Under the pieces are notes generated by a model. That model ran no database searches, was not told the DNA's origin, and saw nothing but the letters and a program-made list of their open reading frames with translations. A stretch of DNA of 64,000 nt. It comes from a virus. How positions within the stretch are numbered: the stretch's first letter is position 1; each line of letters begins with the position of its first letter. Shown here in pieces: positions 13,965-52,956 of the stretch. Location of the stretch: positions 32,001-96,000 of IMG/VR virus record IMGVR_UViG_3300032315_000979. The stretch is one strand, 5' to 3'. The position numbers and the translations under genes were made by a program.

Positions 13965-14213
13965 ATGGCACAGATACAAAACATCCTCCTTAGAATTATT
14001 GCAACATTTGCTGCTTCTGGCTTGGGTGTTGTCGGTGCTGGCACGATTGCTGGTGTCCCGCTATGGAAAGCGATTTTCATGGCGGGCATCGCAGGAGTAG
14101 CAACCGTTATTGAAGGATTGTCAAGAGCATTCCTGGATGATGGTAAACTTAGTCTAGACGAAATTGATCGTGTCTTTTCAAAAACTGAAAAGAGAAAAGA
14201 GGAGATTAAGTAA
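13965..14213 (+). CDS. Holin-like membrane protein
   Basis: Two TM segments and a charged tail (DDGKL...EID). Coupled to the endolysin by TAATG. Confidence 0.6.
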   Translation: MAQIQNILLRIIATFAASGLGVVGAGTIAGVPLWKAIFMAGIAGVATVIEGLSRAFLDDGKLSLDEIDRVFSKTEKRKEEIK

Positions 14214-15055
14214 TGGCTAAGAGAACAGAATGGGATTATATCGTTGAAGTAAAGATGCCTGTTGCGCTTAAAGGTGTTGAACCAGGTAAATTACATGCAA
14301 GTTTGCTCAGGGATATTCCAGGCGGTGGAAAGTTGTTTTACCTTGCGGCTGATGCATGGTTAGCAATGGTTGAGGCTGCAAAGGCTGATGGTGTTGAGCT
14401 TAAGCCCACGAGCAGCGGCGATCTATATCGCAGTTATGAGAGCCAAAAGGCAGGATTTCTTACTCGCTACACTCTTGAGAATACAGGAACTGGATCAACA
14501 AAAACTTTTGAAGGTAAGACTTGGTACTTGAAGAAAGGTATGGCGATGCTTGCCACACCTGGTAAGTCACAGCACAACCTCGGCTTGGCAGTTGATATTG
14601 CCAATGCAAGTGATAAGAAAAGAATTAATTGGTTGATTGCTAATGTTGAAAAGTTTGGGTGGAGTTGGGAAGTAGTTCCTTCAGAGCCTTGGCATATCCG
14701 TTATGTTTGTGGTGACGCAGTACCTCAAGCAGTAAAAGATTATGTTGCTCGTAATCCAAAGCCAGGCAGTCCCTTTGGTTCAGTAGCAGAGCAAAAAGCT
14801 GCTGCTGAAGCAAAAGCAGCAATCCCTGCTCCAAACAAAATAGCTGCTGCATCTAAGCCAAACATTATAAAAGATAATAAAGGCTCTGCTGTAAAAGAAG
14901 CGCAAACTCTTCTTGTAAAACATGGTTTTGCTTGTAAGCCAGATGGTGATTTTGGACCTAAAACACAAGAGCTTGTAAAGCAATTTCAAAAATCAAAAGG
15001 TCTTTCAGTTACAGGTGATGTTGATCAAAACACTTGGGCTGCGTTGCTGGCATAA
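14213..15055 (+). CDS. Endolysin: M15/VanY-type zinc peptidase plus C-terminal peptidoglycan-binding domain
   Basis: YRSY..Q, A.PG.SQHNLGLAVD and EPWH motifs. C-terminal DGDFGPKT...VK.FQ...GL...G.V...TW..L (PG_binding_1). Confidence 0.9.
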   Translation: MAKRTEWDYIVEVKMPVALKGVEPGKLHASLLRDIPGGGKLFYLAADAWLAMVEAAKADGVELKPTSSGDLYRSYESQKAGFLTRYTLENTGTGSTKTFEGKTWYLKKGMAMLATPGKSQHNLGLAVDIANASDKKRINWLIANVEKFGWSWEVVPSEPWHIRYVCGDAVPQAVKDYVARNPKPGSPFGSVAEQKAAAEAKAAIPAPNKIAAASKPNIIKDNKGSAVKEAQTLLVKHGFACKPDGDFGPKTQELVKQFQKSKGLSVTGDVDQNTWAALLA

Positions 15056-20226: not shown

Positions 20227-20276
20227 GCATAAAAATTCGTAAAAAAGTTCTTTATAATCTATAATGGATACTAACT

Positions 20277-20438
20277 ATGGCTGCCATTAATTTTCCCTCT
20301 GATCCTGATATTGATGATACGCATTCTGCCAATGGAAAAACTTGGATTTGGGATGGGGAAAAGTGGATTATGAATACGCAAAATGTTACTAATAAAATTA
20401 ATGATTTAGAAGTATCGTTAGCAATGCAGACTTTTTAA
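20277..20438 (+). CDS. 53-aa fibre-related protein (not in the ORF track)
   Basis: Translates as MAAINFPSDPDIDDTHSANGKTWIWDGEKWIMNTQNVTNKINDLEVSLAMQTF. The INFP..P......NG.TW.WDG.KW motif is typical of fibre N-termini. Confidence 0.6.
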   Translation: MAAINFPSDPDIDDTHSANGKTWIWDGEKWIMNTQNVTNKINDLEVSLAMQTF

Positions 20439-20458
20439 AGGCTGAAAAATAGTAATAC

Positions 20459-20467
20459 TGTTATAAT
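20459..20467 (+). promoter_or_regulatory. Extended -10 promoter, probably leaderless
   Basis: TGtTATAAT, 6 nt before ATG 20474. Confidence 0.65.
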
Positions 20468-20473
20468 TGTATT

Positions 20474-21403
20474 ATGGATGATGTAAAGATTGAAACAAGC
20501 AAAACACTAACTTTAACGCTTCCAAGCGACCCTACATCTAATGTGGTGTCAGTTAGTTTGTATCATGAGTTTGGATCACTTGTTTCTGGTCCAACAAACG
20601 CAACAAGATCAAGTGCTGGAGTTTATACCATCACCTATGGTCAAGCAGCTTCTGGTATCTATATCTTAAATGCTGCGGGAAGATATCGTGCTGATTTTAC
20701 ATATACGATAAGTTCAACATCATACACACAGTCACAATACTTTAATGTCTATACGCCATACATTGATATTGACACCTTCTTTGAAGACCATCCAGAGCTT
20801 GAAACCGATTGGTATGACAAGTTTGAAAAGATGGAAAAGAAGGTAAGGAATATTATCAATACTTATTGTGGTCAGTCCTTTGAATACTATCCTAATAAAT
20901 ATCTTGAAGTCATGGGTTCTGGAAAGAATACACTTCATATCCCAAACCCAATCACTACGCTAAGAAAAGTCACATCCGACCCAGGAACAAATGATGAAAC
21001 GGTTCTGCACGACTACTCCGATGCAACTTTAAATCACATTGAGAAAATCAGAGAGCCTCACAGCTTCGGTAGCTCCTACTACCTGCAATTTAGAAAATCT
21101 GTTCTGGATAGCGTGAATGTTCTTTTGCTTGTAAATAGATTTGATAAGCAAAGTATTTACAGAGTTGAAGGCGATTTTGGTTGGCAATTTGTTCCGAACA
21201 ATATTGAGCAGGCAGCGGATCTTTTGCTGGTTGACATGATGAATGATGATTCTGAATTCAGAAGGCATGGAATTCAAAGAGTTGAAATGGATACAATTAG
21301 ATATGAAATCAATACCACAAACTTCTTTGAGACAACGGGCAACATTGATGCAGATGTCCTTCTTATGGACTACACGCTGTTTGTAATGGACTATGTGGTT
21401 TAA
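20474..21403 (+). CDS. Head-to-tail adaptor with an N-terminal Ig-like extension
   Basis: IINTYCGQSF...V.GDFGW..VP.NIEQAA.LL...TGN..AD.LL.DY. Confidence 0.7.
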   Translation: MDDVKIETSKTLTLTLPSDPTSNVVSVSLYHEFGSLVSGPTNATRSSAGVYTITYGQAASGIYILNAAGRYRADFTYTISSTSYTQSQYFNVYTPYIDIDTFFEDHPELETDWYDKFEKMEKKVRNIINTYCGQSFEYYPNKYLEVMGSGKNTLHIPNPITTLRKVTSDPGTNDETVLHDYSDATLNHIEKIREPHSFGSSYYLQFRKSVLDSVNVLLLVNRFDKQSIYRVEGDFGWQFVPNNIEQAADLLLVDMMNDDSEFRRHGIQRVEMDTIRYEINTTNFFETTGNIDADVLLMDYTLFVMDYVV

Positions 21404-21778
21404 ATGTCTAACGGTGTTTTTATAAACCTTCCGCACAAAATGGATGTCTACACTAAGACAACATCTGTTAATGCTGCTGGGCAACAAACAACATCATACA
21501 CAATGTCGGGAACAATTAAAGCCCTGTATCAGTCAATGTCTTCTGAAAGAAGAACATATCCGTATGTTGCAAATATTGACGAAGTTGAATTTTTTATTTC
21601 ACACAAAGATGCTCAGTATGCAAACTATAGCAATAAAATTCAAAATGTAGTTGACCGCTACGGTAATTCAATAGTTGATTATCCAGTAGAGATTGTAAAC
21701 ATTGATAAAAGAACTGGTTATAACGGTAAGGTTAGAATGATTCTTTTAACTTGTAGGAAGATTACAGAAAATGCTTAG
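21404..21778 (+). CDS. Head-to-tail stopper / head closure protein
   Basis: Size and position after the adaptor. Confidence 0.55.
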   Translation: MSNGVFINLPHKMDVYTKTTSVNAAGQQTTSYTMSGTIKALYQSMSSERRTYPYVANIDEVEFFISHKDAQYANYSNKIQNVVDRYGNSIVDYPVEIVNIDKRTGYNGKVRMILLTCRKITENA

Positions 21779-22301
21779 TATTCAGGTCAACAAGTCAGCT
21801 TTGATTCAAACAGAGATGGCGGCTATCTACTATTCAGTCCTACCAGTCCGAGTTCAGCATGCACAGGTGCAGGCAATGATGAGGTCAAAGCGTGACATGA
21901 AGATGGCAACAGCCGATCTAGGAAGGGCTGCAAAGTATTTACAATACGAAATCATTCCATTTGGTCCAACAGGCATGACTTTAAAAGTAAAACCATATCC
22001 AAAAGGGTCATTTAGAAAAGATGGTGGAAATATCCAGATCGGGTCTGCAATTCTTTTAACTGGTAAAAAAGGTGGTGGTGTAATCAGAGGAAAAGGAAAT
22101 GGGATTATGAAAGTAAGATCAGCCTCTGTTGCACAAGGCTATTCGGAGTTCTATAGAGCTGTTAGAAAAGTAGCAATTCCTTCAAAAAGAAAAGAAATTA
22201 GAGAGATTGCAAAACAAGTTATTATTAAAAACCTTAAACAAGAATTTATTAGACAAGGTTTTACCGCAAGAGGTGCTGGCGGGGTGGATGTGGTAAGGTA
22301 G
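21771..22301 (+). CDS. Neck / tail completion protein (basic)
   Basis: Synteny only. Confidence 0.45.
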   Translation: MLSIQVNKSALIQTEMAAIYYSVLPVRVQHAQVQAMMRSKRDMKMATADLGRAAKYLQYEIIPFGPTGMTLKVKPYPKGSFRKDGGNIQIGSAILLTGKKGGGVIRGKGNGIMKVRSASVAQGYSEFYRAVRKVAIPSKRKEIREIAKQVIIKNLKQEFIRQGFTARGAGGVDVVR

Positions 22302-22304
22302 TTT

Positions 22305-22715
22305 ATGCCAATTAGCGTCTATTCTATAAACACTTATCTTAAGGCAGATACTACTCTGGCTAATATTGCTGGAAAAGTTATGAACTTTTTTCCAGTAATT
22401 GGCTACAGCACAGAAACAGCTCCTTTTGTAATTTACTATTACAATCCACATATCCCATCTGTTGAGTCATACTGGAACAGGTATGACGCAATTAGGTATT
22501 CTATTTATGATTCGGATGTTGACAGGTTATTTCAAATCTCAGAAAGATTAATCAAACTCCTTGGAGAAGGAGATCAGATTCAAGGAAATGTTGCCAGTTC
22601 AAGCGTAAGAGTTCTTAGCTCACAACTGGTATCAAGTTCTTTGTCAGAGCCTATTGAGAAAGAAGGTTGGTACCAAATGGACCTTGATTTCTCGCTGTTC
22701 TCAGTGAGCCTCTGA
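22305..22715 (+). CDS. Tail terminator protein
   Basis: L.AD..L......PFVIY pattern. Lies before the major tail gene. Confidence 0.6.
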   Translation: MPISVYSINTYLKADTTLANIAGKVMNFFPVIGYSTETAPFVIYYYNPHIPSVESYWNRYDAIRYSIYDSDVDRLFQISERLIKLLGEGDQIQGNVASSSVRVLSSQLVSSSLSEPIEKEGWYQMDLDFSLFSVSL

Positions 22716-22740
22716 TATATTTGTGGTATCATAAAAGTAT

Positions 22741-22935
22741 ATGAAGTATAATGTAATTACATACATCGGCAAGACTCCAGGGTTTTCCGTGAAACTAGGT
22801 AAAGAGGTTTATGAGTTTGAGTGGCAAAAAGGCGTAGGAATAGGTCGCCGCTCAGATGAAATAAAATTAGATCACGCCGTGAAGATTTCTAAATGGCGAG
22901 ATCGCAAGGGCAAGAAAATATTTGTCCTTGAATAA
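22741..22935 (+). CDS. Small hypothetical protein
   Basis: ATG 8 nt after TGgTATCAT (22724-32). Confidence 0.6.
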   Translation: MKYNVITYIGKTPGFSVKLGKEVYEFEWQKGVGIGRRSDEIKLDHAVKISKWRDRKGKKIFVLE

Positions 22936-22950
22936 CAGGAGGATAGTAAA

Positions 22951-23529
22951 ATGGCAGTAACAACTTCCAATATCGTAGTTGGTGAGGCTTCAGTAAAGAC
23001 TGGTGCTTCTAACATTACGATGACGAATGCAGATTTTGATAGCTTGACAGATGTGGGCGCAACCCAAGGTGGTCTTGAAATTTCGTGGGAACCAGACATG
23101 GTTGACATTGAAATTGACCAGTACGGTGACGCAGCAAAGGTCATTCAGTCAAAGGTGAAAGTAATGGTTAAGACAACCCTTGCAGAAGGAACTCTTAATA
23201 ACCTTGCAACAGCATGGAGCTATGACAATACAACTGGTGGAAATGACATCAAAGCAAACAATGATGGCGCAAACACCAAGACCTTGTTGTTCGGTTCGCA
23301 GAGCGTGTACCCATACGAGTACGCAATCCAAGTAACTGGATATGCCCCAGGTTCAACAGCAGCAGTGACAAAGACACGCAAGTTTAACACTAAGCGAGCA
23401 GTGTCAATGACCACTTCAATGCTATCAATGAAGAGAGCAGAAGCTTCAGTTTTTGAAGTTTCGTTCCGTGTTCTTCCAGTAGTCGGTGACACTGGTTACG
23501 AATATGGCAAGATCATTGACCAAAGCTAA
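22951..23529 (+). CDS. Major tail (tube) protein
   Basis: SD AGGAGG. NIVVG.A...VGATQGGLEI.WEP...DIEIDQ...KTTLAEGTL.NL..AW...F.V.FR.LP...YG.I.D. Confidence 0.85.
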   Translation: MAVTTSNIVVGEASVKTGASNITMTNADFDSLTDVGATQGGLEISWEPDMVDIEIDQYGDAAKVIQSKVKVMVKTTLAEGTLNNLATAWSYDNTTGGNDIKANNDGANTKTLLFGSQSVYPYEYAIQVTGYAPGSTAAVTKTRKFNTKRAVSMTTSMLSMKRAEASVFEVSFRVLPVVGDTGYEYGKIIDQS

Positions 23530-23552
23530 TTAAAACCAAAAGTTTGTACTAA

Positions 23553-23603
23553 GCGAAAACTCCTGAGAGTCGGTATGATATACTGAAACTTGGGAGTTTT
23601 TGC
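23553..23603 (+). terminator. Long imperfect hairpin between the major tail and chaperone genes
   Basis: Outer arms GCGAAAACTCCTGAG / CTTGGGAGTTTTTGC. Inner stem TCGGTAT-gat-ATACTGA, with G-U pairs. Confidence 0.55.
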
Positions 23604-23641
23604 ATTATTCCCACTATTATAAAACAAGGAGCACATAAAAA

Positions 23642-23950
23642 ATGGCAACAAATACTGATCTGTTTAAGGGTACTGAGATTACATTTTCTGATGGAAAGAA
23701 GAGAATCGTAAAGCCTTTGACAATTAAGCACCTTCGTGAATTCATGAAGGTTGCAAACGATATGAAGTCCAATGATGAAGCTGGAATGACTGATGAGGAC
23801 ATTGATAAGATGATCGCAGCAGCCTCAATCGCACTGAGAAAGGCTGATCCAGAGTTGGCTGCAAATCGTGATTTGCTTGAAGACATTCTTGACCTTAGAA
23901 CATTTGGTGAAGTAATGGCTGCAGCAATGGGTAACGACCCAAACCAATAA
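23642..23950 (+). CDS. Tail assembly chaperone (G)
   Basis: Lies between the major tail and tape measure genes. SD AAGGAG. Slippery heptamer at the 3' end. Confidence 0.85.
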   Translation: MATNTDLFKGTEITFSDGKKRIVKPLTIKHLREFMKVANDMKSNDEAGMTDEDIDKMIAAASIALRKADPELAANRDLLEDILDLRTFGEVMAAAMGNDPNQ

Positions 23951-23983
23951 ACGGGGATGGCGAGGGTGGTGAACCCTTGTCAT
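23938..23983 (+). promoter_or_regulatory. Programmed -1 frameshift signal
   Basis: C CCA AAC heptamer (23938-44). The -1 frame is open into ORF 23977. An 11-bp hairpin lies at 23957-83. Confidence 0.8.
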
Positions 23984-24273
23984 GGAATGAGATTCCCCTT
24001 CTCAAATATGAATCAGAAATATTTGTACAGGTCGGTGCATGGAAAAATCTAGAGGAGTTAGAGGAATCTCTAATCCTTCATGAGATGTTTCTATTGTACC
24101 GAGCTTGTACCAATGAATTCAGTAAGAATATCAAAGCACTCGCCTTGGCTCAAGGCGCTGATGTTGACTTTGAAGATGACTGGTACTCGCCAGAAGATAG
24201 AGTACCAGATGAGCCAATGAGACCATTTGAAGTAATGAACTTCGGCATTCCATTGGGATATCAAGCAGATTAA
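23938..24273 (+). CDS. Tail assembly chaperone extension (T part of the G-T fusion)
   Basis: The -1 frame reads PKPINGDGEGGEPLSWNEIPLLKYESEIF... No obvious SD precedes the TTG at 23977. Confidence 0.75.
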   Translation, partial: PKPINGDGEGGEPLSWNEIPLLKYESEIFVQVGAWKNLEELEESLILHEMFLLYRACTNEFSKNIKALALAQGADVDFEDDWYSPEDRVPDEPMRPFEVMNFGIPLGYQAD

Positions 24274-24321
24274 TGATTGCTGATTATCTAAAAAAATGGG
24301 ATAATATTTGTTGGTACAAAC

Positions 24322-27300
24322 ATGTCTGATGTTGATCTAATAATTAATGTACATACTAATGGCGTTAAGGATATTACTAACCTTAGTGCTGCCACTAGAG
24401 CCTTAGCCCTCAATCTAAGGGGTATTACAGTACCAATGAGCAAGCTTGATGCTCACAGCCGAGCTGTGAACAAAGCTCTTGGAATGACAAACAGAAGCAT
24501 GAATGATCATGCAAAGACTGCCAAGCAGATGATTGCAAATCAGAAGGCTCTGAGTGCAGAAACTAAGCGTGTTCAATCAAACATCAAGTCATACGCTATG
24601 GCTATTCAATCAGCTGGTGGTACAACCACAGCGTTTGGTAGAGAGCTGATCCAAAGCAGGAATGAATTAAAGCAATTTAGTTCAACCCTAAGAGGCTTGC
24701 GAATTAGAGCATTTGGCTCAGACCTTGGTTCAATATCACTAAAACTACAACGAATTGGTAAAGACGCACAGTTTGTTGGTAGAAGCTTGATGATTAACCT
24801 CACAGCTCCAATCCTTCTATTTGCAAGAATGGGCTTCCAGAGCTTGTTGAAGGTTGATGAGCAATTTGTAAGATTGACAAAGGTTCTTGAAGGCGTTGCT
24901 ATGACAACCGATCAAGCAAACTCAAAGCTTAAAGATTATCTTGGTCCAGACAAGGAGAAGAGAGTCAAGCAAATGACCGACTCCTTTAGAGAACTAAATA
25001 CCGCTTTGACCGAGCAAAGCGCAAGATTCGGTGTCGCAAAAGATTTAGTAGTTAGTCTGGCTGTTGATTTTGCAGAACTTGGTGTTACTGCAAATGAAAA
25101 TATTGTAGCACTTACTGAATTAGCATTAGCTGCAGAAAAATTGGGAGGAATGGATGCATCTGGTGCGCAAGATCTATCCTCAGCCTTGTTCTTTAATGCA
25201 ACGAGAGCATACGAGGTTGCTGGTGCATTTGATGATGTAACAACAGCTGCTGAGCGTGAATCTAAAGCTATAGCGTCAGCAACAGTTCAGCTCAACATGT
25301 TCAACACAATTGAAAATGTCACCGCACTTTCATTGAAAGACCTTGCTGATTCACTACCTGAACTTGGAGGTATGGCGCTAAGTTTCGGACTATCAATGAC
25401 AGAAGCAGCCGCTCTGCTTGCACCAATGAAGGCTGCTGGTTTTGATATTGGCGCATCTGCAAACTCAATTAAAGTATCTTTGCAAAGAGCAATTGTTCCA
25501 ACTAAGCAAAATGTTGAACTACTAGCAAAACTTTCTAAGCAATATGGTGTTACTGGCAAATCTGGTAACGCATTTAGCGAATCAACAAAGACTGGTCTAA
25601 CAGGACTTCAAGCTATTGTTGATATTTTTGGAAAAGTTGTTGAAGGTGGAAAAAACACTGAAGCTGGACTGAAACTGATGTCTGAAATATTTGAAAAGCG
25701 TCAGGGTCCAAGAATGTATGTTGCTATTGAACAATTGAATCAGTTTGATGCTGCTTTGAAAAATGTTAATGCTAATCAATCACCAGAAAGATTGATGGCA
25801 GGTGTTGCTGAAGCATCCATTAGAGCCTTTAATAAACTTAACGGCACAGCACTCCCAGAAACAATAAGTCAGTTTAGTGATATTGGTGTTATCGCAAGAA
25901 TTGCTACTGCTGAAGTTGGAGCATTAGTTGATGGGTTTAAAGGCAAAGGTGCAGGCGGTGGTATTACAGCAGCAGAAAAGAAAGGTGCTATGGAGGCACG
26001 AGATGCTGTAGCCAAGCTGATTAAAGAGAAGAAATTAAATGAAGATATTGACTTAATCAGCCAAGTTAAAACACAGGCTGGTCGTGCTCTGCTTGTTGAG
26101 CTTGCAGGTGCATCTGGCGCTGCGGATGTAGCAAACATGGAATTAGAGCAGTCATTGAAATCTCTTTCGGTTGCTACTCAGAGAATAAAGATTGCATTTA
26201 AAAACTTTGCTGCAGATGTGCTTAGAAATGTAGCTCCATCACTAAAGAAGTTGTCTGATACGATCAACAGTCTTTATCTAAAATGGCAAGCACTAAGTGA
26301 CACAACAAGAGAAAGAATATCCAAATTAATTCTTGGCTTCCTCGGTTTCTTAGCAGTAATGGCACCAGTAATTCTTGCATTAGGAACAATGCAATCATCT
26401 ATCGGTGTGCTTGGAAGAACCGCTACATTCTTCTTACCGAAGCTAAAGAATTTTGAAGGTGGTCTTGTAGGAATTGCTGGTGGAGCAAAGAAAGCAACCA
26501 CGGCAATGACAGATATGTATAACAGTTTCCTTGGCAAGAAACAACCACTTTCTATGCTTCCAAGTTTTGCACCTGCTGGCGGTACAGCATCATCAATGAT
26601 TGGTATGCCAACAAGAGTTGGTCGCAACATCACACTCCCTGGCAATATTGCTCCAACCCCAACACCACTAACTGGACTTACAGGCGCTGCTAGAACAAGT
26701 GCCATCAATGCAAACAGAGCAGCGAGGCTTTCTCATGCAGCAACAGGAAGACTGGGTGTAGATCAGTATCTTAGAAATGAAGCAAGTATGCTTTCTGCTA
26801 ATAATATGCGACTTAATGCTCGTGGTCGTGTAATTGGTCCAAGGGGTGGTTTTGTTGGTGGTAACATTCTTGGAAAAATTTCTGAAGCATCAGTATTAAG
26901 AGAAGCCGCTCTTGCGGATTCTGGAATCTCTAGAACAATGTCTGGAGGCGCAAGGCTTGCTACAAAGAGAGGCTTTGTAGATGTTACTGAAGACAGAGCA
27001 TTAAGAATTGCTCGTGGTGGTATTGGTGGTGCAATAGCAAGAAGAACAGCGGCGCTTCCTGGTTTGGCTGATTCATTTACTTCAGCTACTGGCGTAACAG
27101 GAAGAGGTTTTGCAAGAGGAATGCTACCTACCCGTGGAGGGATCGCAACTGGTGCAGGAAATGTTAGAGGTTTAGCGTCAGCTGCATTTAACGCTGGTCC
27201 AGTTGCTGCTTACACAAAGTCGGTGCAAGGTGCTAAAGCTGCAGTTCAAGCAATGAAGATTGAACAGATGGCTTTGGGTGGTAGCGCTGGAAAAATTAGA

Positions 27301-30300
27301 ACAATGTCAACTGCAATGACTGGTTTTATGAAAGCTACAAAGCTTGGAACGGTTGCTCTTAAGTTAATGAAGATTGCTTTGATATCAACTGGTATTGGCG
27401 CAATCATGCTGGGCATCGGTGTTGCTGTTTATATCATTGTTAAAAACTTTAGTGCTTTTAAAGATAAAGCATCTAATGCAATACTAAGAGTCAAGAACGC
27501 ATGGGCAATATTTAAAGAATCTATTGGGATGCTAATTCAGCCTTTTGTAGATTTGTTTTCAATAATCGGTGGTGGTTCTAAGAAAGGTGGAGATGCTGTT
27601 GGCGGTCTTGCAAGCGCATTTGATTTAGTTGGGAAAGTACTACAGAAAGTAGCTTCTTGGTTTAAGATGCTGGTTGAAAACTTTATTCAGCCATATCTGT
27701 ACATGATTATTGATATTGTAATGTTTGTTGTTTCAATATTCCAAGGCAACTGGGGTAAAGCTTTTGATTACCTTGTTGCCGCTACCTCTGGTGCAGTAAA
27801 GATTGTTATTAAGTTAATTGCCGCTTTGCTAAAAGGAATGGTGTGGATCACCGCTGGTGGAATTAAGTTGATAATCGGATACTTTACACTAATTCCAAAA
27901 GCTGTTGCTAAAGTGTTTAGTTTCCTTGAAAGAATTCCAGGTGTTGGTGGAATATTTGGATGGATTGGTGACAGTATCAATTTCGTTATTGACGGTCTTT
28001 ATGGATTGGTTGATGCGGGTAAAAATGCTGCTAGTGGTGCCATTGATGCAGTAGCTAACGCAGCAACTGGATTGCTAGATAAGGGCGTATCTAAGGGTAT
28101 CAGCTCAGCCGAGGGTAAAATCAGTAATGATACAAAGATTAAAGACGCAGCAGAAGAAACTGGTGAAGAAGCTGGCGAAATCATGGGTAACTCCTTTGGT
28201 GATGGCTTTGAAGAGTCTGACGCTACTGGAAAAATTGCAAAAGCCATTGAAGAGGGCATTGTTGATGCCATTCAGAAACTTCAAGATTATGTTGCTGGAG
28301 AGATGGCAGATGCATTAACTAAGTTTGTAGATGCATCCGTTAAGGCTCTTGAAAAGCAAAAAACATCTGCTCTAAAAGTATTTGATGTCCAAATCAAAAC
28401 ACTTGGTAAGCTTGAAAAAGCAGAAGAATCGCTTACCAAGAAGAAAGAATACGAAAATAATAGAAGAAAGATTATTGACAACCAAGCTCTTAGTAATGAG
28501 CAGTTCCGTAGAAACTATGCATTGGCTGTTTATGAAGGTCGTGTTGATGACGCAAGAATGCTACAGCTTCAGCAGAGCGCTGATGAAAAAGGATTTAGTA
28601 GTGACCTTTTAACAATTGAGCAAGAAAGGTCAAAGGATCTCGCAAAAGAAAACCTTGATGCTCTCAAGGAAGCTATTAACGAAGCAAAAGATGCAGCTTC
28701 ATTATTCTTTGAAGAATCAATTGCTAAGTTCCAAGAGTCTGCTGCTCTAATTACAAAGGTTGCACCAGTTACTGTTGAACAATATACGGCGCAACTACAA
28801 GAACTTCAAACATTAACAGAAACAAACGCTACCAATATGAATACAACATTTGGTGCGATGTTTGAAATTTTTGCAACCACAATTGCAGACAAGATGCCAA
28901 ACAAGGTTATTGGACCATTTGCAACAAATCTTGACGAACTTGTATTAGTAGCAAAAGAAAAATTTGGTCTTGGATCTGATAAGAGTGAAAACACTGTAAT
29001 TGGTATTACTATCGGAATGCTCGCTGGAATGGGAGTACAGTTTGGTGAAGGAAAGCAATTAGTAATTGATTCGTTCGGTGTAATAACATCTGGTCTCGCT
29101 CAAAACTTTACGGATATGAAGACCAAGTTCTTGGATGAGGTTAAGAGCGATTTCATTACAAACTTTAAGAAGGCACTGGATGAAGCAGAGCCAACAAAGG
29201 TTTTCAATCAAGCAATCATTGATGGAAACCTAAGCATCCTTAGAAGCTTCCAGAACATGGTGGATCTAAACCCAGCACTGATGGAGAAGTTAAGAAAGAG
29301 TCTTGATCCAGCAATTAATAAATACCTTGAACTAAAAGCAGCCGCAGATGCAGCAAAAGATGCAGCAGGAGCTGCAGCAGACGCAGCAGCAGGCGGTGGG
29401 GGCGGTGGTGGTGGAGGTGGAGGCACTGGTTCCCAACCAGGACCAGGAACACCTGCAGGTGGAAGAGCAGATGCATTTGCAAGAAATAATGAACTCAGAG
29501 CTGCCAGAAATCTAAGAGCACTTACATATCAAGAATTTATTGGAAATTACAAGGGCTTCAAGAAGGGTGGAATAATTCCATCAAGAACGCAAAATCAAAA
29601 TCAAGGGTATCCAGAGGGCTTCATCCCAGCTCCAACACAAGAAGGTGTACCAACGCTTCTTCATGGTGGAGAATACATTCTTAATGCGAAGGCGGTTTCA
29701 AGAATCGGTGTAGGTGCTTTGAATAAGATGAATAATAACCTTATTCCAAAATTCCTTAAGGGTGGTCAGGTTCCAGGTGGAAAGAAAGGTACAGCTTCAA
29801 ACACAAGAGGAACGGCAGATCGTCTTGAACAGAAAGTTACCAATAAAACATCTGCTTCGCCAAGTTCATTAAAAGCTCCAATAGACTTGTCAAAAATTCA
29901 AGGCGTTACTTTAAAACCGACTACACCTGTTAGTCCAAAAATTCCAGGAATTGCAACACCTGGTCACACCTATAGCTCCTCAGAGATAAAAAAACTTACA
30001 ATGCGACCAAACACTTATTTGGTTCCAGCCCCATCTTTCACATCCCCTGGAACTAAACAAGCGCCTAAAGAGTTCTTCCAAGTTGCAACAAGACAAGAAG
30101 CGCTTTCTTATGCACAAATAAAAATGCAAAATGATGCTAAGGCAGCACAAAGAGCAGAGCAAGAAAAGTGGACAACATGGGAAAGATTTATTGGTCAAAA
30201 CACAGTTAATGGGGTCTCAACAATAGGTGGTCCATATAAACAATCGGGTATTGCAAGTGCAATTGAAAAATTCCCACTCGCAGGACTTCTTGTAAAAGAT

Positions 30301-39800: not shown

Positions 39801-40752
39801 GACTTCACTTAGTGATTCTACAAACATAACAAAAGCAGACTATGTTGTTTCACTCCAGTGTAACAAAGTTGTAATTCCTATCTCGTCTGTTCAAACAATT
39901 TCTGGGTCATTACAAAAGCTTTGGTCTCCACCAGATAATGCTTCATTAACAATTACTGAATTAACTGCCAATGTTACATCTTCAGATACATCAATGTATG
40001 TACTATCAACAGTGACAACGCAATTTCCACAGACTGGTTATTTAAAGATTAATAATGAAATTATTAAATACCTATCAAAGACAGCAACATCTTTTAACAA
40101 CCTTGAAAGAGGACAGTTCCAAACGGTTGCTGCAAATCATACCACTGGTAATAGAGTAAGAGAAACTAGATATTATGATGTAAAGTTTGACAAGTCTCCA
40201 GCGTACAATGTTAGATCACCATACATTGATGCAATATTGTTTGAATATCCAAGTTTGATAAACATAGATAGATTCCTATCGTATGCCTACGGAGCGGAAT
40301 TAATTGTTTCTGCAGCAAGCGGTAATGACATTCATTCGGTAGCCTTCCTTCAGGGAACAAACCCAATAACACAATATCCGTATGCTACAAGTATTGTTGG
40401 TACAGCTGTCGTTATGTCAGAACAGAATGCTCAGGTAAAAGAACAATCAGCATCAACAAGTGAAAGTATTAGAAAATACGGGGTTAAAGATTTAACTCTC
40501 CAAAGTCCACTCATCACAGACTCAGTGCATGCTCAAAAACTGGCTGATTTTATCATATCAAAAACACAACTTCCAGTACCTGTTATTAATATTGATATTG
40601 CAGCAATGCCCAAGATTCAATTAGGTGATAGAATTAGAATAACAACACTAAGCGCATTGGATATCACCAATAGTGATTTCTGGGTAATATCTCACAACCT
40701 AACAGTTGGAGATAATGTTACCCAAAGTTTAGTGTTGAGGAAGGTGTCCTAA
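36844..40752 (+). CDS. Tail hub / large minor tail protein with PA14-like and LamG-like domains
   Basis: PA14-like GLRARFW...FDGYY...GGVRIYLDD...LRIEFY. LamG-like FSHIAVTYDG..LKYFVNG...IDEFAMY. C-terminal SIRKYG...P.IQLGDRI. Confidence 0.75.
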   Translation: MLTSGMYGKELSSSFNTAITSPAQRIKPKIIIKWLDSRHVDNLVITTNDAPASNAYPGRGFFFPAKEAMNGIKRQSFTWAVAGAKDIDGNVIRADGSWYAMPSLTSSDISNTQLGSNLEFGWWSNSVSTANVHATYDGYQFATNPYVEATFTTRKVNKVRIVTSEFYGQISTYLLQVFDGSLNTLLSEVGTIPAGSYYQDHILSTALSSQNVSRIRVTVYTTVNPQDYARIQEIVPIYETDISDYVISYSVNRARDVHSTSLPVGGSEIASVDLNLDNTTKVFNIFSNSSTYGQYMVKDLEVEIYTGWRIKKPPSDNIDASYLTTTLQSNISNADMSFTVLDRSVLPAGGAGDSFIVVLDKDTQSEETILCASVNSSNVVTILERGYGNTIEKSHTAGCEVRFDIYEYVKNGTFYVDEWSSGTDMSVSANLQDWGKFLSERTINYGFFMQNAYVGDAIENLLMRANFPSADIVKLNNYRRGAKSRGAVASFSFNEESIDRSGNNIVSSTGLRARFWAMPTNKRDSSVKDIVADAIDKELSPLDKALGEKAFSSPSYTALSKSISSSSAYAVDLSNFSFTALDSAVYSEYYNGVFDGYYISPASGLEQLVVTISYGGVRIYLDDILVLNRFNLATVSTRYASQMINFKAGVPRKLRIEFYHSYNDAGAASFDISLYRAPDGGSDVLISASQCCTIVAMDSIGSKDASSNIANEDAFNHRNNGVYVNSPVLNQPSGLTSDPGDKSVLLQSNSYVRIPYCASSNLTSESQDPWSIEFFGKFHNGSFSSDGEYISNWGNANPTTGFEFFNNSSSNGFKIKCVLANSAVVTETVSSNTALSNSAFSHIAVTYDGLYLKYFVNGDLKDTEIIEGTPISWASSDITIGGRGASFTSGAEVSPATIRSLYIDEFAMYRKCLTDEQVEDRYVESSIQPLTEFAFLYGNENSIREIANDISFADMGRFYINEYDKAKYEHFYRFFEPSIDQHASVQTSLSDSTNITKADYVVSLQCNKVVIPISSVQTISGSLQKLWSPPDNASLTITELTANVTSSDTSMYVLSTVTTQFPQTGYLKINNEIIKYLSKTATSFNNLERGQFQTVAANHTTGNRVRETRYYDVKFDKSPAYNVRSPYIDAILFEYPSLINIDRFLSYAYGAELIVSAASGNDIHSVAFLQGTNPITQYPYATSIVGTAVVMSEQNAQVKEQSASTSESIRKYGVKDLTLQSPLITDSVHAQKLADFIISKTQLPVPVINIDIAAMPKIQLGDRIRITTLSALDITNSDFWVISHNLTVGDNVTQSLVLRKVS

Positions 40753-42326
40753 TGCCTAGTGAGAATACAATATACTTCTACCCTGGTCGTGGTGGGCACT
40801 CTCATGATGGGAATAATTCAAGCTTTATTGACACTTCGGTATATTCCTTATTTGATTTTTCTTGGGGCGAAGTCGGTGATCCAGACAGACGGGCTTCTCA
40901 GAGAATAAACTATAACGCATTTAGAGACTTCGTTATAACTACTGTCAATGGATCAATACTAGAGCCATCTGGACTTGTTCTTCAGCCAGGAATGGTGAAC
41001 GGATCTGCTCATATTATCTCAAGGTCAATTGAAGCTAATACTATTGCTGCAAATACATTAACTGCAAATGAGATTTCTGCAAATACAATTACATCAAATG
41101 AACTGGCTGCAAACTTTGTTCTTGTTAATACAATAATTGCAAGTAGTGATTTTAATGGAGCATTTAATCCAACTACATTTGCACTAAGTAACACTGGGAC
41201 AGATGGCTGGGCTATTACAAGTGCTGGTGATGCTGTATTTACTAATGGTCTTTTTAGAGGAAATCTTTTTGTTGGTGCTAACGATTATTGGTATTCAAAT
41301 GGAGATTTTGCTCTCGGTGGGAACACTGGTATTTATAGAAATGCGGGCGGGGGAATTACTCTTGGTGCTAATGTAACAATACTTGGTGGAGTGATAGCAT
41401 CGTCTGTTGCAACTCCAGGTATTGATATTGATTCTGCTGGAAATCTAACTGCTAATACATTTGCTCTTTATGGAAATGGCGCAATTGTCACATCAAGTGG
41501 TAATTTTGCGGTTGATATATATGGGAATCTTTATGCTGAGAGTGCAACTCTGCGTGGAGAAATATCAAGCGATACATTTGTTACTCATAATAGATTCGGT
41601 GTAGATGTAAACTATACAAGACCAACGGTTCTTATTGATAATGCAAATAATGAATTCTCTCTTAATTCCGCAGGAGGTGGTATAAGACTAGAAGCTGATC
41701 AATGGCTTGCTTATAGAAGCGGAGATAGTTTTTATAGAATGAATTTTAATTTTGATACAGCAAATTACTCCTTGCTTGGTCAATTCTATGTTGATGGTGG
41801 CATTACCGCTGCTGGAGAATTACAGGGCGATTATGTAAACATTACTGGAGATGGTGTATATTACAATGCAAGTAATCTAGCTTTTGCGCAAACGCAAGGT
41901 GTATTTCCAATTTCTTTTGCCTATAGGATTTCTGGTGGAAGATACTATCTTATAGCTAATAATGATACCAACACACTAGGAACAATAACCTGGACACCTT
42001 CTGATAGAAGAATTAAAGAAAATATATCACCAGTATCTAGCGACATTTTAAATAAATTTTATTCAATTAATGTATATGAATTTAATTGGAATGATAAAGC
42101 CCCCTCATTTTTAGACAGAAATCTTGTTAATGTCGGTGTTATAGCCGATGAATTGGTAACTATTGTTCCAGATGCCGTAGATGATTTTGGTTCAGACGGG
42201 GATGAACCTAATAGATGGGCAACTGTTGAATATGAAAAAATAGTTCCTTATGCAATTGCAGCAATCCAGGATTTAAATAGCAAAATACAGGCGTTAGAAG
42301 CAAGAATTGCTGAGTTGGAAGGGTAA
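40752..42326 (+). CDS. Tail fibre/spike with a C-terminal intramolecular chaperone (peptidase S74)
   Basis: I.ANTIT repeats. PSDRRIKENI...GVIADEL...V.YEKIVP..IAAIQDL coiled-coil end. Confidence 0.85.
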   Translation: MPSENTIYFYPGRGGHSHDGNNSSFIDTSVYSLFDFSWGEVGDPDRRASQRINYNAFRDFVITTVNGSILEPSGLVLQPGMVNGSAHIISRSIEANTIAANTLTANEISANTITSNELAANFVLVNTIIASSDFNGAFNPTTFALSNTGTDGWAITSAGDAVFTNGLFRGNLFVGANDYWYSNGDFALGGNTGIYRNAGGGITLGANVTILGGVIASSVATPGIDIDSAGNLTANTFALYGNGAIVTSSGNFAVDIYGNLYAESATLRGEISSDTFVTHNRFGVDVNYTRPTVLIDNANNEFSLNSAGGGIRLEADQWLAYRSGDSFYRMNFNFDTANYSLLGQFYVDGGITAAGELQGDYVNITGDGVYYNASNLAFAQTQGVFPISFAYRISGGRYYLIANNDTNTLGTITWTPSDRRIKENISPVSSDILNKFYSINVYEFNWNDKAPSFLDRNLVNVGVIADELVTIVPDAVDDFGSDGDEPNRWATVEYEKIVPYAIAAIQDLNSKIQALEARIAELEG

Positions 42327-49557: not shown

Positions 49558-52500
49558 GTGACAGAGTTTGTCCACTTGCATTGTCATAGCGAGCACTCGC
49601 TACTAGACGGAATGTCAACACCTGAAGAGATCGCACAAATGTCAAGCTCTAACGGTCAGTTTGCTGCAGCAATTACAGATCACGGAACAATGGCTGGAGT
49701 TCTTAGATTTCAAGATGCGTGTCAGAAACATGCTGTGCGACCAGTTTTTGGTGTTGAGGCATACTTTGTACCTTCAGTAAAAAATGACGGTGATGGTAAG
49801 CATGAGAGATTTCACTTAATTCTTCTTGCAAAAAATAATATTGGTCTTAATAAGTTATTTAAAATGTCACAAATTGGTTGGCAAGATAACTTCTACTACA
49901 AGCCAAGAATTGATTTTGATCTCCTAGAGGATATGGTTGATGATGACATTATTGCACTCTCTGGTTGCAGAGGAAGCTCTATCTCAAAAGCAATTGAGGC
50001 TGGGGATTATGGGCGGGCAGAACAATTGTCCGAAAGATTTGTTAAGATTTTTAAAGACGATTTTTACTTTGAACTACAGGCTTGGAATCCCAAAGAGATT
50101 AATGATGGATTGCTTGATTTAGCATCATCGTTTGGGAAGAAGGCGGTAGCAACTGCTGACTGCCATTTCCCAACACATGCAGACAAAGGTGTAGAAGAAG
50201 TTCTCCTTCTTGTATCCCAGTACCCAAGTATTGGTGCTCAAACAATTAATGCTGCAAAAGAAAATCTTGCAACACTACATACTTGTGGTCCAGATTTGAT
50301 TGACAGAGTTAATCACCTGTACCCTGATAGGTATTTGCGGTTTGATGATATCAATCCATATATTGCTGACGCTACAACTGTGCTTTCTTGGTTTAAAGAA
50401 GCTGGGTATGATAGGCAGGATATTCTAGAAAATACAATTGAGGTTGCAAGTAAGTGTAGTGCTGAGATTGTAAAGAGAAGAAATCTTCTTCCAAAGTACA
50501 TGAAGTCACTTAACTCAGACGAGTATCTATCCGAACTTACAAACTTTAGATTGAAAGAACTCAATCTTGGTGATGAGTACAAGACAAGGCTTGATGAAGA
50601 GCTTGGGATTATCAAACAACTTGGATTCTCTGATTACTTCCTAATTGTATGGGATTTGATTTCCTGGGCTGATGCGAATGGTATTGGTCGTGGTACTGGT
50701 CGTGGTTCTGTTGGTGGTAGCGTAATGGCATTCCTTCTCAACATTACAAAAGTAGATCCAATCAAATACAATCTATTGTTTGCACGATTCATTAACCCTG
50801 ATCGTAACGACTATCCTGACATTGACTTGGACTTTGAAGATAAGCGTAGAAATGAAGTTAAATCTTATTTAAGAGAAAGATGGGGGCGTGACAATGTTGC
50901 TGCAATCACTACTTATGGTACTTTTAAGCCTAAGTCGGCTATTAAAGATGTTGCTAGAGTTCTTCAAGTTTCATATGAAGAGACTAATAACATCACTCCT
51001 TTTTTTGAGACAATTGAGGAGCTTATGGAATCGTCTAAAGGTAAGATATTTTGTAATAAGTATCCAGATGTTCCAAAAGTTGCTAAAAGACTAGAGGGAA
51101 GAATTAGAAACGCTGGTGTTCATGCTGCTGGCATGGTTGTTTCATCTATTCCACTAAGTGAAGTCTGTCCGATTGAAACAAGAAAAGAAACAGACGGTGG
51201 AGAGCGTGTAATGGTTACGGCATTTGATATGACGGATGCAGAAGCTGTTGGGCTTATTAAGATTGACATCTTAGGTCTAAAGACCGTATCTGTAATTAAA
51301 GACTGTCTAGCGAAGATTAAAGAGCGCACAGGGCTTGATGTAGAGGCTCAATCATTGTCACTTGACGACCAAGCGGTATTTACTAACTTCAATAACGGTA
51401 ATACCGTAGGCGTATTCCAAACGGATGCTGCAGCATATAGGAACCTAATTGAGCGAATGGGAATTGATGACTTCAAGGATCTTGTTGTATCAAATGCGCT
51501 GGTTAGACCAGGAGCTTTGCTTTCGCAGGGTCAGAAGTATATTGATTGCAAGAAAGGTTTTACCGAGCCCTACTATCCTGATAAATCAGTAAAGGATATT
51601 CTTGAAGAAACATATGGTACTGTAATTTTCCAAGAGCAATTAATGCAAATGTCGGTAAAGATATCTGGTTTTACATGGTCTGATGCTGACAAGCTAAGAA
51701 AGATTATCGGAAAGAAAAGAGATGTTGCAGAATTCAAGCAGTATAAAGATAAGTTTATCAATAATGCAATCATTCCAAAAACAGAGGCAAAGCAAATGTG
51801 GTCTGAGTTTGAAATGTCTGCTCTATATATGTTCAATAAATCACATGCTGTAGCATATTCAATGCTTTCATATCAAACAATGTGGTTGAAAGTTAACTAT
51901 CCACTTGAGTTCATATGGTCTCTTCTATACAACGAAGATTCGTCTGAAAAAATTACCGCTTACTTGATGGAAGCTCAGAGACTAAAGATTAATATTCTTC
52001 CACCAGATGTTAACTATTCGGAAGAATACTTTACAACATATGACAAAGATGGAGTAGAGGGAATCAGATTTGGTCTGTCAAATGTTGCTGGTTGTGGTGC
52101 ATCGGCTATTAAAGAAATTACATCTAAGAGACCATTCAACTGCTTAGATGAATTCAACAACAAATGCTCTAAATCCGCTGTTAAAGCTCCGCTTAGAGAA
52201 AACTTAGAAAAGGTGGGTGCCTATGCGTCACTTAATCATGTATCTCAATATCAGCACGAAAGATACTATCTCCCAGTCCTGGGCTTCTCCATCCAGTCGG
52301 GTGAAGAAAAGAATGAGATGGATGAATTCGTTGGTAATCTTGCTGATTTCCATGAAATCAATTCTTCATTAACTCTTATTAAAGCAATTGTTAGATCAAC
52401 AAAGAAAACACCTCAGTATCTGAGAATTGAATTTGAAGATCACTCAGGTTCAGCTACCGTGTTTGCGGATAGAAATACTGAGATGGCAAATAGAGATTAT

Positions 52501-52956
52501 GTATACGCTTTGATTGGAGATAGAACACTTCATTCTTTCTGTGATGCTTATAATTTCATCGGCTCAGACTTGCATAAGTTTATTACTCTTAGACAAAAGG
52601 GTGATAATCATGAATACAACTGGCTGTATGATACTGGTCTTGGTCATGTTGATGAAGAAAAGACTCTTATGTATGTTATGCACTCAAGAGTCTTTACAAC
52701 ATCAAAAGATAAGACAATGGCTAACATGTATTGCTGGGATGGAAAGCAGATATTTAAGGTTGTTATTTTCCCTAGACCATATACCAAGCTCAAGGGTATT
52801 ATCAAGCAGGGACAATGGTATGCAGCAAGGCTTTCAAAGATTGAGGAAAAGCAAACTCTAACTCGTATGGACTCATACAAGGTGGAATCTGACTCTGCTA
52901 TTATTAGCATTGAAAATTATATTGAAAGAAAAAATCTGGTCAAAGCTATTGTCTAA
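49558..52956 (+). CDS. dnaE: DNA polymerase III alpha subunit
   Basis: PHP domain HLHCHSEHSLLDG, GRGSVGGS, PDIDLDF, HAAG, KIDILGL, FNKSHAVAY. Confidence 0.95.
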   Translation: MTEFVHLHCHSEHSLLDGMSTPEEIAQMSSSNGQFAAAITDHGTMAGVLRFQDACQKHAVRPVFGVEAYFVPSVKNDGDGKHERFHLILLAKNNIGLNKLFKMSQIGWQDNFYYKPRIDFDLLEDMVDDDIIALSGCRGSSISKAIEAGDYGRAEQLSERFVKIFKDDFYFELQAWNPKEINDGLLDLASSFGKKAVATADCHFPTHADKGVEEVLLLVSQYPSIGAQTINAAKENLATLHTCGPDLIDRVNHLYPDRYLRFDDINPYIADATTVLSWFKEAGYDRQDILENTIEVASKCSAEIVKRRNLLPKYMKSLNSDEYLSELTNFRLKELNLGDEYKTRLDEELGIIKQLGFSDYFLIVWDLISWADANGIGRGTGRGSVGGSVMAFLLNITKVDPIKYNLLFARFINPDRNDYPDIDLDFEDKRRNEVKSYLRERWGRDNVAAITTYGTFKPKSAIKDVARVLQVSYEETNNITPFFETIEELMESSKGKIFCNKYPDVPKVAKRLEGRIRNAGVHAAGMVVSSIPLSEVCPIETRKETDGGERVMVTAFDMTDAEAVGLIKIDILGLKTVSVIKDCLAKIKERTGLDVEAQSLSLDDQAVFTNFNNGNTVGVFQTDAAAYRNLIERMGIDDFKDLVVSNALVRPGALLSQGQKYIDCKKGFTEPYYPDKSVKDILEETYGTVIFQEQLMQMSVKISGFTWSDADKLRKIIGKKRDVAEFKQYKDKFINNAIIPKTEAKQMWSEFEMSALYMFNKSHAVAYSMLSYQTMWLKVNYPLEFIWSLLYNEDSSEKITAYLMEAQRLKINILPPDVNYSEEYFTTYDKDGVEGIRFGLSNVAGCGASAIKEITSKRPFNCLDEFNNKCSKSAVKAPLRENLEKVGAYASLNHVSQYQHERYYLPVLGFSIQSGEEKNEMDEFVGNLADFHEINSSLTLIKAIVRSTKKTPQYLRIEFEDHSGSATVFADRNTEMANRDYVYALIGDRTLHSFCDAYNFIGSDLHKFITLRQKGDNHEYNWLYDTGLGHVDEEKTLMYVMHSRVFTTSKDKTMANMYCWDGKQIFKVVIFPRPYTKLKGIIKQGQWYAARLSKIEEKQTLTRMDSYKVESDSAIISIENYIERKNLVKAIV

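Follow-up and report, generated by a model that had tools for sequence, protein, structure and literature searches.

A phage tape measure protein with an exchangeable cassette between two copies of a terminal motif

Introduction

Tape measure proteins (TMPs) of phages are usually treated as passive rulers, sometimes with one small lytic motif, and in T5 the TMP pb2 carries a C-terminal peptidase. Here we describe the TMP gene of an uncultured phage known from the IMG/VR record IMGVR_UViG_3300032315_000979. The analyzed stretch, called the window in the following, comprises 64,000 nucleotides (nt), bases 32001-96000 of this 108,687-bp virus record. The predicted TMP (P0001) has 3,676 amino acids (aa) and is encoded by a single open reading frame (ORF) at 24322..35352 of the window; all parts of the protein discussed below are given with window coordinates and are encoded on the same (plus) strand. 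An initial annotation, made from the letters of the DNA and its ORFs, had proposed that a duplicated motif in this protein brackets an exchangeable cassette of effector domains delivered at infection.

The closest described counterpart is gpH of phage lambda, which is cleaved close to its C-terminal end, within a Gly-rich region, to give gpH*, the ruler and later a trans-envelope channel (PMC12617516). The last residues of its C-terminal part gpHC (about residues 690-853) bind the tip protein gpI and the C-fragment stays at the tip; of six C-fragments, three may not be retained in the virion (PMC12617516). In phage TM4, an Rpf motif embedded in the TMP (gp17 mt3) counts fully toward tail length (PMC1796659), and in Thermus phage P23-45 the 5,002-aa gp96 combines a TMP with a virion RNA polymerase in one chain (PMC10770324). 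Beyond phages, TMP-related effectors of the Sle1 type are reported from actinobacterial contractile injection systems, in which diverse C-terminal domains are joined to a conserved delivery part (PMC13277306).

The window TMP resembles lambda gpH (gpHC; PDB 8IYK) in having a ruler, a Gly-rich region, the motif GG...P..vH.GE.V...A..RIGVG, a second partial copy of the motif and a short tail, and this layout is reproduced exactly by two short relatives of the window TMP (those of L014 and P0039). However, nothing lies between the motif copies of gpH, whereas 1,721 aa are inserted at this place in the window TMP and up to 3,014 aa in its relatives. Also, cleavage and tip binding are known for gpH, and the sequence match between the window motif and gpH is weak (E=0.49). 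TMPs with one small embedded motif, the fusion of a TMP to an RNA polymerase and TMP-related effectors of injection systems were already known; new here is a slot that lies between two copies of a terminal motif, can contain as much as 3,014 aa of shuffled modules and has its content exchanged among phages that are near-identical.

Results and Discussion

Replacement and absence of the cassette in close relatives

DNA comparison with two relatives (L004 and L009) delimited an exchangeable cassette of 1,721 aa (residues 1840-3560; 29839..35001). In blastn analyses, the window and L004 were 96.3% identical at 20230-29839, did not match at 29840-35003 and were 94.7% identical from 35004 onward. 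The left junction with both relatives, at about 29810-29852, falls in DNA coding for ...VPGGKKGTASNTRG..., and the right one, near 35002-35004, in DNA coding for ...GGYVPG..., which is the start of the second motif copy. In place of the 5,164 nt of the window, the IMG/VR contigs L004-L008 hold 5,071 nt of dissimilar DNA, and L009 holds an alternative cassette of the L004 kind (70% protein identity to that of L004) between flanks that are 95-96% identical to the window. When the window cassette was compared with this alternative type using hhalign, no similarity was detected past the first 22 aa. Conserved flanks around a variable insert, named in the initial annotation as the pattern in TMP genes of relatives that would favor its proposal, were therefore found, with an insert that is not homologous between the two types.

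Other relatives are devoid of the cassette. In L012-L014, the tail module is syntenic but its TMP, of 1,950 aa, lacks the cassette; the TMP of L014 corresponds to window residues 1-1828 plus 3547-3676 with the motifs in tandem, and the second motif copy in L012-L014, directly after motif 1, is without the HGGEY core. Similarly, the TMP P0039 (2,071 aa) has no insert and two full tandem copies of the motif. Ruler and cassette can also be discordant. When compared to the window, L004 has a ruler that is 97% identical and a cassette with 0% identity, and P0002 has a ruler that is 56% identical and a cassette that is 77% identical over its full length. As near-identical flanks carry unrelated cassettes and diverged rulers share one cassette, the stretch between the motifs is a discrete cassette that has been exchanged horizontally, which agrees with the bracketing originally proposed. 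The breakpoints of exchange are located in the motif-coding flanks, in conserved DNA for the segment after motif 1 and for the start of motif 2. For processing at the FxxGG motifs, which had been suggested at the outset, the support is an analogy to the cleavage of lambda gpH in its Gly-rich region (PMC12617516).

A chimeric assembly, which the initial annotation had listed as a finding that would undo its proposal, or two genes fused by sequencing error might in principle produce such an unusually long gene, and base composition does shift at about 30.8 kb. However, the frame is open over 11 kb with 0 internal stops, collinear full-length versions of the TMP are present in independent ENA, NCBI and JGI assemblies, the layout with two motifs is common to more than 80 family members, and the virus record is rated 100% complete and has direct terminal repeats. 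The chance of such an artefact is practically negligible.

Over the 26 kb that the window shares with L009 (about 95% identical), the only large differences are the cassette and the tip of the tail fiber. This pattern is typical of host-interface loci, and the slot between the motifs would mark such a locus under rapid turnover.

In the tail fiber gene (40752-42326), the last 210 or so codons (41687-42322) are without DNA similarity in L009, L015, L001 and L014, and on both sides of this region these relatives are 94-98% identical. The fiber tip appears to be a second hypervariable host-interface locus.

The duplicated motif and the C-terminal module

Motif copy 1 (residues 1744-1820; 29551..29781) begins with KGFK at residue 1744 (nt 29551) and continues with HGGEY at residue 1781 (nt 29662) and FLKGG at residue 1811 (nt 29752). 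Motif copy 2 (residues 3553-3617; 34978..35172) has KGFK at residue 3557 (nt 34990) and HGGEY at residue 3578 (nt 35053). The distance between the two HGGEY cores is exactly 1,797 codons, and the initial annotation had read the positions of both cores, their spacing and the start of the poly-Gly tract (29392) correctly. When the two copies of about 60 aa were aligned to each other, they were 35% identical over 57 aa (E=1e-11). A hidden Markov model (HMM) of the family motif scored the window copies at 6e-34 and 7e-37, values that are partly circular because the seeds of the model included both of them. The similarity between the two copies is far beyond chance. The motif is common to about ten PHROG families of TMPs, at times at internal positions, and copy 2 matches the C-terminal end of phrog_3336.

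At the DNA level, no direct repeat was found between the two motif copies of the window gene. Repeat-mediated deletion within the gene was therefore rejected as a mechanism of exchange.

A poly-Gly tract of 11 Gly (residues 1691-1701; 29392..29424), with an Ala-rich hinge just before it, precedes motif copy 1 and may correspond to the Gly-rich region in which lambda gpH is cleaved. The number of Gly residues before motif 1 differs among relatives, with 11 in the window TMP and in P0006, seven in L009 and six in L014. A paper from 2026 is said to connect homorepeats in TMPs with tail length (PMC13585406).

When a profile built from eight motif copies was compared to the PDB, the sole match was lambda gpH (8iyk_H) with a weak E-value of 0.49 over 40 columns; the profile aligns with gpH residues 734-773 and then with a half-repeat at gpH 776-790. 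The pattern of the alignment is nonetheless convincing, and membership of the motif in a module of the gpHC type is plausible. As the order of poly-Gly tract, motif, cassette, motif and 60-aa tail in the window TMP parallels gpHC, the cassette would be proximal to the tip and leave the tail first. The conserved C-terminal tail (residues 3618-3676 and the stop codon; 35173..35352), for which the ratio of nonsynonymous to synonymous substitution rates (dN/dS) is 0.05, is presumed, from the analogy to gpHC, to be the anchor to the tip complex.

We consider it reasonably probable that the TMP combines a ruler of conserved length, a terminal module of the gpH-C type and a swappable cassette that is probably delivered first and acts in host entry or early manipulation. 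Residues 1 to about 1700, with their conserved length, hydrophobic segments and an Ala/Gly hinge at the end, would constitute the ruler. The terminal module, of the kind seen in the C-fragment of lambda gpH, would consist of two motif copies of about 60 aa, which lie side by side in the minimal relatives, and a tail of about 60 aa. The 1,721-aa cassette occupies the slot between the motif copies; recombination in the conserved flanks exchanges the content of this slot, which is also reshuffled within. Because a TMP is placed with its C-terminal end at the tip and exits the tail with this end first, the cassette would probably be kept in the distal lumen of the tail, in a metastable and largely unfolded or helical state, and would be the first polypeptide to enter the host envelope or cell on infection. 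There it may serve host-specific entry, by envelope penetration or conduit formation, or early manipulation of the host. When stored in the lumen, the cassette would probably lengthen the tail too.

The fate of lambda gpH could also suggest a propeptide that is needed for assembly only, i.e., a cassette that helps to assemble the tail or its tip in the manner of a scaffold or chaperone, is cleaved near the motifs and is lost before maturation. Cleavage of gpH near its Gly-rich region and the possible departure of half of its C-fragments from the virion would be in line with this, and sites of cleavage in the window TMP could be indicated by its motifs and poly-Gly tract. However, a propeptide of this kind should co-evolve with the conserved tip proteins, yet unrelated cassettes work with flanks and tip genes that are 95-96% identical. 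Furthermore, relatives with the short form assemble without any cassette, and the wall hydrolases present in the slot of some relatives (see below) make sense only if they are delivered to the host. We therefore regard an assembly-only propeptide as quite improbable.

Variation of the slot across the family and sub-modules of the cassette

A search with the ruler part yielded a family of 114 TMPs (2,024-5,070 aa, on contigs of up to 117 kb), and the statistics on spans and positions rest on the 84 TMPs in which the motif HMM detected at least two motif copies. In this set, the first motif begins at residue 1804 ± 72 and 66 ± 22 residues remain after the last motif, whereas the span between the motifs ranges from -6 to 3,014 aa with a mean of 1,322 ± 587 aa. 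At least 84 TMPs of uncultured phages of about 100-117 kb thus keep a ruler of fixed length and a slot fenced by motifs. The cassettes form 28 groups at a mutual coverage of at least 60%, and several TMPs of the family have three motif copies and consequently two slots in series. There are at least 28 cassette architectures, made from shuffled sub-modules. A scan of metagenome contigs with the cassette gave only one further locus.

The window cassette is itself a mosaic of sub-modules, labeled A to D. Sub-module A (residues 1890-2148; 29989..30765), predicted to be helical, shares 88% with type Ib cassettes and 30-32% with P0023, P0026 and P0029. Its end at about residue 2148 is a mosaic breakpoint, and the type Ib relatives are 81-96% identical to the window TMP at residues 1-2148 and 25-39% identical beyond. 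Sub-module B (residues 2170-2477; 30829..31752) is cleanly missing in P0004, which is without residues 2177-2451, and this block of about 300 aa is located at other positions in P0091, P0048 and P0057 (34-39%). It is followed by the Ser/Gly-rich and indel-rich sub-module C (residues 2478-2650; 31753..32271; dN/dS 0.44) and by sub-module D (residues 2651-3546; 32272..34959), which has homologs at 23-39% in type Ib cassettes, P0016, P0017, P0043 and P0119 and to which the only domain predicted with moderate confidence (see below) is assigned. Among cassettes of the same type as that of the window, P0003 is 92-98% identical at residues 2170-2530 (module B) and 29-58% identical downstream (module D), and P0002 shows the reverse of this pattern between modules B and D.

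In its composition the cassette differs from the ruler, as had initially been noticed for its aromatic and Pro residues. Aromatic residues amount to 9.5% in the cassette versus 6.1% in the ruler and Pro to 5.1% versus 2.0%, whereas Ala is lower (8.6% versus 13.8%); Ser and Asn are also higher in the cassette, and hydrophobic segments are absent from it. The GC content is 0.33-0.38 in the cassette, 0.40-0.45 in the ruler and 0.386 on average in the window, and the GC content at third codon positions (GC3) is 0.16-0.24 in the cassette, 0.22-0.33 in the ruler and 0.19-0.31 in other genes. The insert is therefore more AT-rich than the ruler, as the initial annotation had stated, but the difference is modest and leaves the cassette near the genome norm, with no signature of foreign DNA. 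It is the Ala/Gly-rich ruler that is the GC-rich outlier, and the cassette is at or slightly below the norm of the genome; its lower GC content is mostly due to amino acid composition. A foreign origin on the basis of base composition was rejected, as the GC3 of the cassette overlaps that of other genes.

In comparison with L015, dN/dS values were 0.17-0.44 for the cassette, 0.07-0.18 for the ruler and 0.05-0.08 for the motifs, with 0.08 for motif 1. The cassette is under purifying selection, which is looser here than on the ruler.

Domains in the slot of relatives

In two relatives, wall hydrolase domains were recognized in the slot. P0061 has an Rpf-like transglycosylase domain (PF06737; 27.7 bits) at residues 1843-1901, directly after motif 1, with a sub-threshold match in P0064, and P0115 has an NlpC/P60 domain (PF00877; 33.5 bits) at residues 3273-3368, just before motif 2. 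The slot of P0061 and P0115 resembles TM4 gp17 mt3 and T5 pb2, where a non-ruler domain in frame with the TMP acts at entry. However, TM4 and T5 have single small motifs (about 100 aa) in fixed positions, whereas here 0-3,014 aa of shuffled and exchanged modules are fenced by motifs, and the window cassette itself is without a recognizable hydrolase. In P23-45 gp96, the likeness lies in a giant TMP with an optional enzymatic part that is missing in some relatives and has a proposed early role after delivery through the tail. In contrast to the slot, its polymerase is N-terminal, of one domain type and without flanking repeats; no polymerase signature turned up in the window TMP, in searches none of which was aimed at polymerases. 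Sle1-type effectors (PMC13277306) and polymorphic toxin systems (PMC3482391) share with the slot the combination of a conserved delivery part and exchangeable functional domains. However, their variable domain is C-terminal, they belong to cellular injection or secretion systems and they often have immunity genes, whereas the variable part of the window protein is internal, conserved on both sides and part of a phage TMP. A role of the slot at the host interface is supported by the restriction of large differences to cassette and fiber tip, by the wall hydrolases in the slot of relatives and by the precedents of TM4 and P23-45.

In the alternative (type II) cassette of L004 and L009, one block (L004:11264-12046) is 97% identical between the two over 290 aa, with a long invariant run, and is encountered at other positions in further cassettes at 32-35% identity. 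The block contains the patterns DxWLGNxD...N and IDxGG, which we take to resemble a kinase-like catalytic loop and which HMM and PDB searches did not confirm. In a language-model search, its neighbors were unnamed standalone bacterial or viral proteins of 220-310 aa (0.97) as well as LepB_N, PI3_PI4_kinase and HipA_2 (0.91-0.93), and neither HMM searches with PF18640 and PF00454 nor PDB sequence searches gave a match. A kinase-like (PI3/4-kinase- or HipA-like) domain in the type II cassette is only a lead.

Searches for a function of the window cassette

A number of results weigh against a first-delivered cassette that acts in host entry or early manipulation. Sequence searches of the window cassette against Pfam, PHROGs, NCBIfam, PADLOC and the PDB gave no match, and a language-model search of the whole cassette in the ESM Atlas gave a best score of 0.76 and no lead. 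An exhaustive HMMER search with residues 2150-3349 against 1.84 billion representatives returned seven proteins, all of them TMPs of the family or fragments cut by contig ends. As all relatives are TMPs, the modules have not visibly been captured from known enzymes. AlphaFold2 models, made with alignments from full-length homologs, had mean confidence (pLDDT) values of 34.5 for residues 1899-2720 and 44.1 for residues 2170-3369. Only residues of about 2581-2614 and 2658-2889 (nt 32062-32988) reached pLDDT values of 60-85, as a helical domain with a small sheet. A Foldseek search of the PDB with the 2170-3369 model gave no match at E<=0.001 (E>0.7). The low-confidence models fit a non-globular, ruler-like or metastable chain as well as they would fit an orphan fold with a shallow alignment. 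To these points can be added the weakness of the motif match to lambda gpH and the TM4 precedent, where the embedded motif counts as ruler and cargo and ruler are therefore not mutually exclusive. That this protein is ejected, processed and kept in the lumen is our inference.

Further searches agree with this picture. In a wide VIA-align search with the 2170-3369 model, the highest Z was 5.0, for generic helical proteins, and the domain of about residues 2581-2889 was without a fold match; structure searches are informative for this helical domain, the other parts of the cassette being too low in confidence. Structure prediction and Foldseek, proposed in the initial annotation as a check, thus yielded mostly low-confidence models and no known fold. 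Pfam, NCBIfam and PHROG searches for hydrolase domains in the window TMP found none, and it is therefore not among the hydrolase-bearing TMPs. Among GenBank phages, DNA and protein searches gave no match to the cassette, and for the ruler only two remote matches to TMPs of Rhodococcus phages. A candidate resemblance of residues 2171-2426 to DUF3626 (PF12294) or an ADP-ribosyltransferase (ART) had no Pfam match at E<=1, and a search of the whole genome with PF12294 gave no match, with control genomes equally silent. At pLDDT values of 23-46, as throughout sub-module B, and with almost no strands, the model of these residues is too low in confidence to judge an ART-like fold. The effector domains against host defense or for host takeover that had been envisaged for the window cassette thus found no counterpart in family, fold or defense-related searches.

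In a search of shorter proteins for standalone forms of the cassette, only a 249-aa fragment at a contig end was obtained, the L004, L009 and L014 records contained no free-standing gene resembling a cassette, and no immunity-like gene was evident next to the TMP gene. The hallmarks of polymorphic toxins, a neighboring immunity gene and free-standing spare cassettes, thus appear to be absent for the window cassette.

Some of these results would also be explained if the sequence between the motifs were extra tape, so that tail lengths among relatives would range from about 290 to 760 nm and the diversity of the slot would reflect weak constraint on a spacer. TMP length sets tail length (about 0.15 nm per residue), with the enzymatic motif of TM4 included, the AlphaFold2 models are low-confidence mixtures of helix and coil, no enzymatic domain was found in the window cassette, relatives of the cassette occur within TMPs only, and Cys is absent throughout the protein, as in the ruler. 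However, the ruler is of conserved length, whereas slots of 0 to 3,014 aa are seen in close relatives, and the cassette is unlike the ruler in composition. Sub-modules of 250-300 aa are recognizable at 30-40% identity despite changed position and order and therefore behave as independent domains rather than as spacers. Within one cassette type, dN/dS is below 0.5 and indels are few. In addition, hydrolase domains occur in the slot of relatives, and for a mere spacer, a second motif copy with strong conservation would be unnecessary. A mere extension of the ruler is therefore unlikely.

The reading of a ruler with a swappable, probably first-delivered cassette might be extended further, although we put this forward tentatively and with some doubt. 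The slot might be a general, recombination-driven platform for payloads, in which strings of kinase-like enzymes, wall hydrolases and unknown folds are kept in the tail lumen and injected ahead of the DNA against host barriers or for takeover. The gpH-type motif would then be a recombination handle and possibly a signal for processing or docking, and the window cassette would represent at least four new families of injected effectors. The slot provides a testable handle on the material that siphophages deliver to the cell before their DNA, bears on the storage of large polypeptides in the tail lumen and on a possible decoupling of tail length from TMP length, and its flanking motifs are natural joints that could be usable for experimental swaps of cargo in laboratory systems of phage and bacterium.

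The TMP gene and its setting

Matches of the window TMP to PHROG families of TMPs (phrog_5448, 3.6e-27; phrog_10030, 4.8e-19) span residues 15-1082, and a further TMP family (phrog_3336) matches its C-terminal end. Pfam PhageMin_Tail (PF10145) aligns with residues 251-439 (nt 25072-25638) at 31.2 bits (E=2.5e-7), which is slightly below the cut-off of 33.2, and a precomputed PF10145 match is recorded for the window TMP and nearly all of its relatives. This region lies within the ruler part (residues 1-1690; 24322..29391), the length of which is kept across the family and which contains an Ala/Lys/Glu-rich stretch and three hydrophobic segments (residues 665-697, 1011-1046 and 1121-1191). The whole protein of 3,676 aa has 0 Cys residues and 0.2-0.5% His.

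Upstream of the TMP gene are located a gene for an Ig-domain or major-tail-like protein (22951-23529) and, on the plus strand, a putative pair of tail assembly chaperones of the G/GT kind (23642..24273; phrog_10504, 1.6e-11), the frame layout of which was read from the sequence. The chaperone ORF (23642-23950), with GAC CCA AAC CAA TAA as its 3' end, is followed by an extension in the -1 frame (23935-24273), and a canonical slippery heptamer, CCCAAAC, is present at 23938-23944. A programmed -1 frameshift of the lambda G/GT type thus appears to lie immediately 5' of the TMP gene. Downstream, also on the plus strand (35353..42326), follow tail-tip genes for proteins of 140 aa, 354 aa and 1,302 aa (minor tail or hub-like) and for the 524-aa tail fiber. 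The gene order is as expected for a TMP gene, after the major tail protein and frameshifting chaperones and before the tail-tip genes. Based on the PHROG and Pfam matches, the upstream G/GT-type frameshift pair and the flanking tail genes, ORF 24322-35352 is confidently predicted to encode the TMP of a siphovirus-type tail module.

Elsewhere in the window, a 280-aa endolysin-like protein (14213-15055) matches with its N-terminal 170 aa the internal positions 916-1067 of phrog_16823, a PHROG of TMPs (2e-40). The same lytic domain therefore seems to be free here and embedded in the TMPs of other phages. The window also encodes a tryptophan-halogenase-like protein at 7710-9182 (phrog_2928, 6e-107) and a DNA polymerase of 1,132 aa at 49558-52956 (phrog_405, 2e-290).

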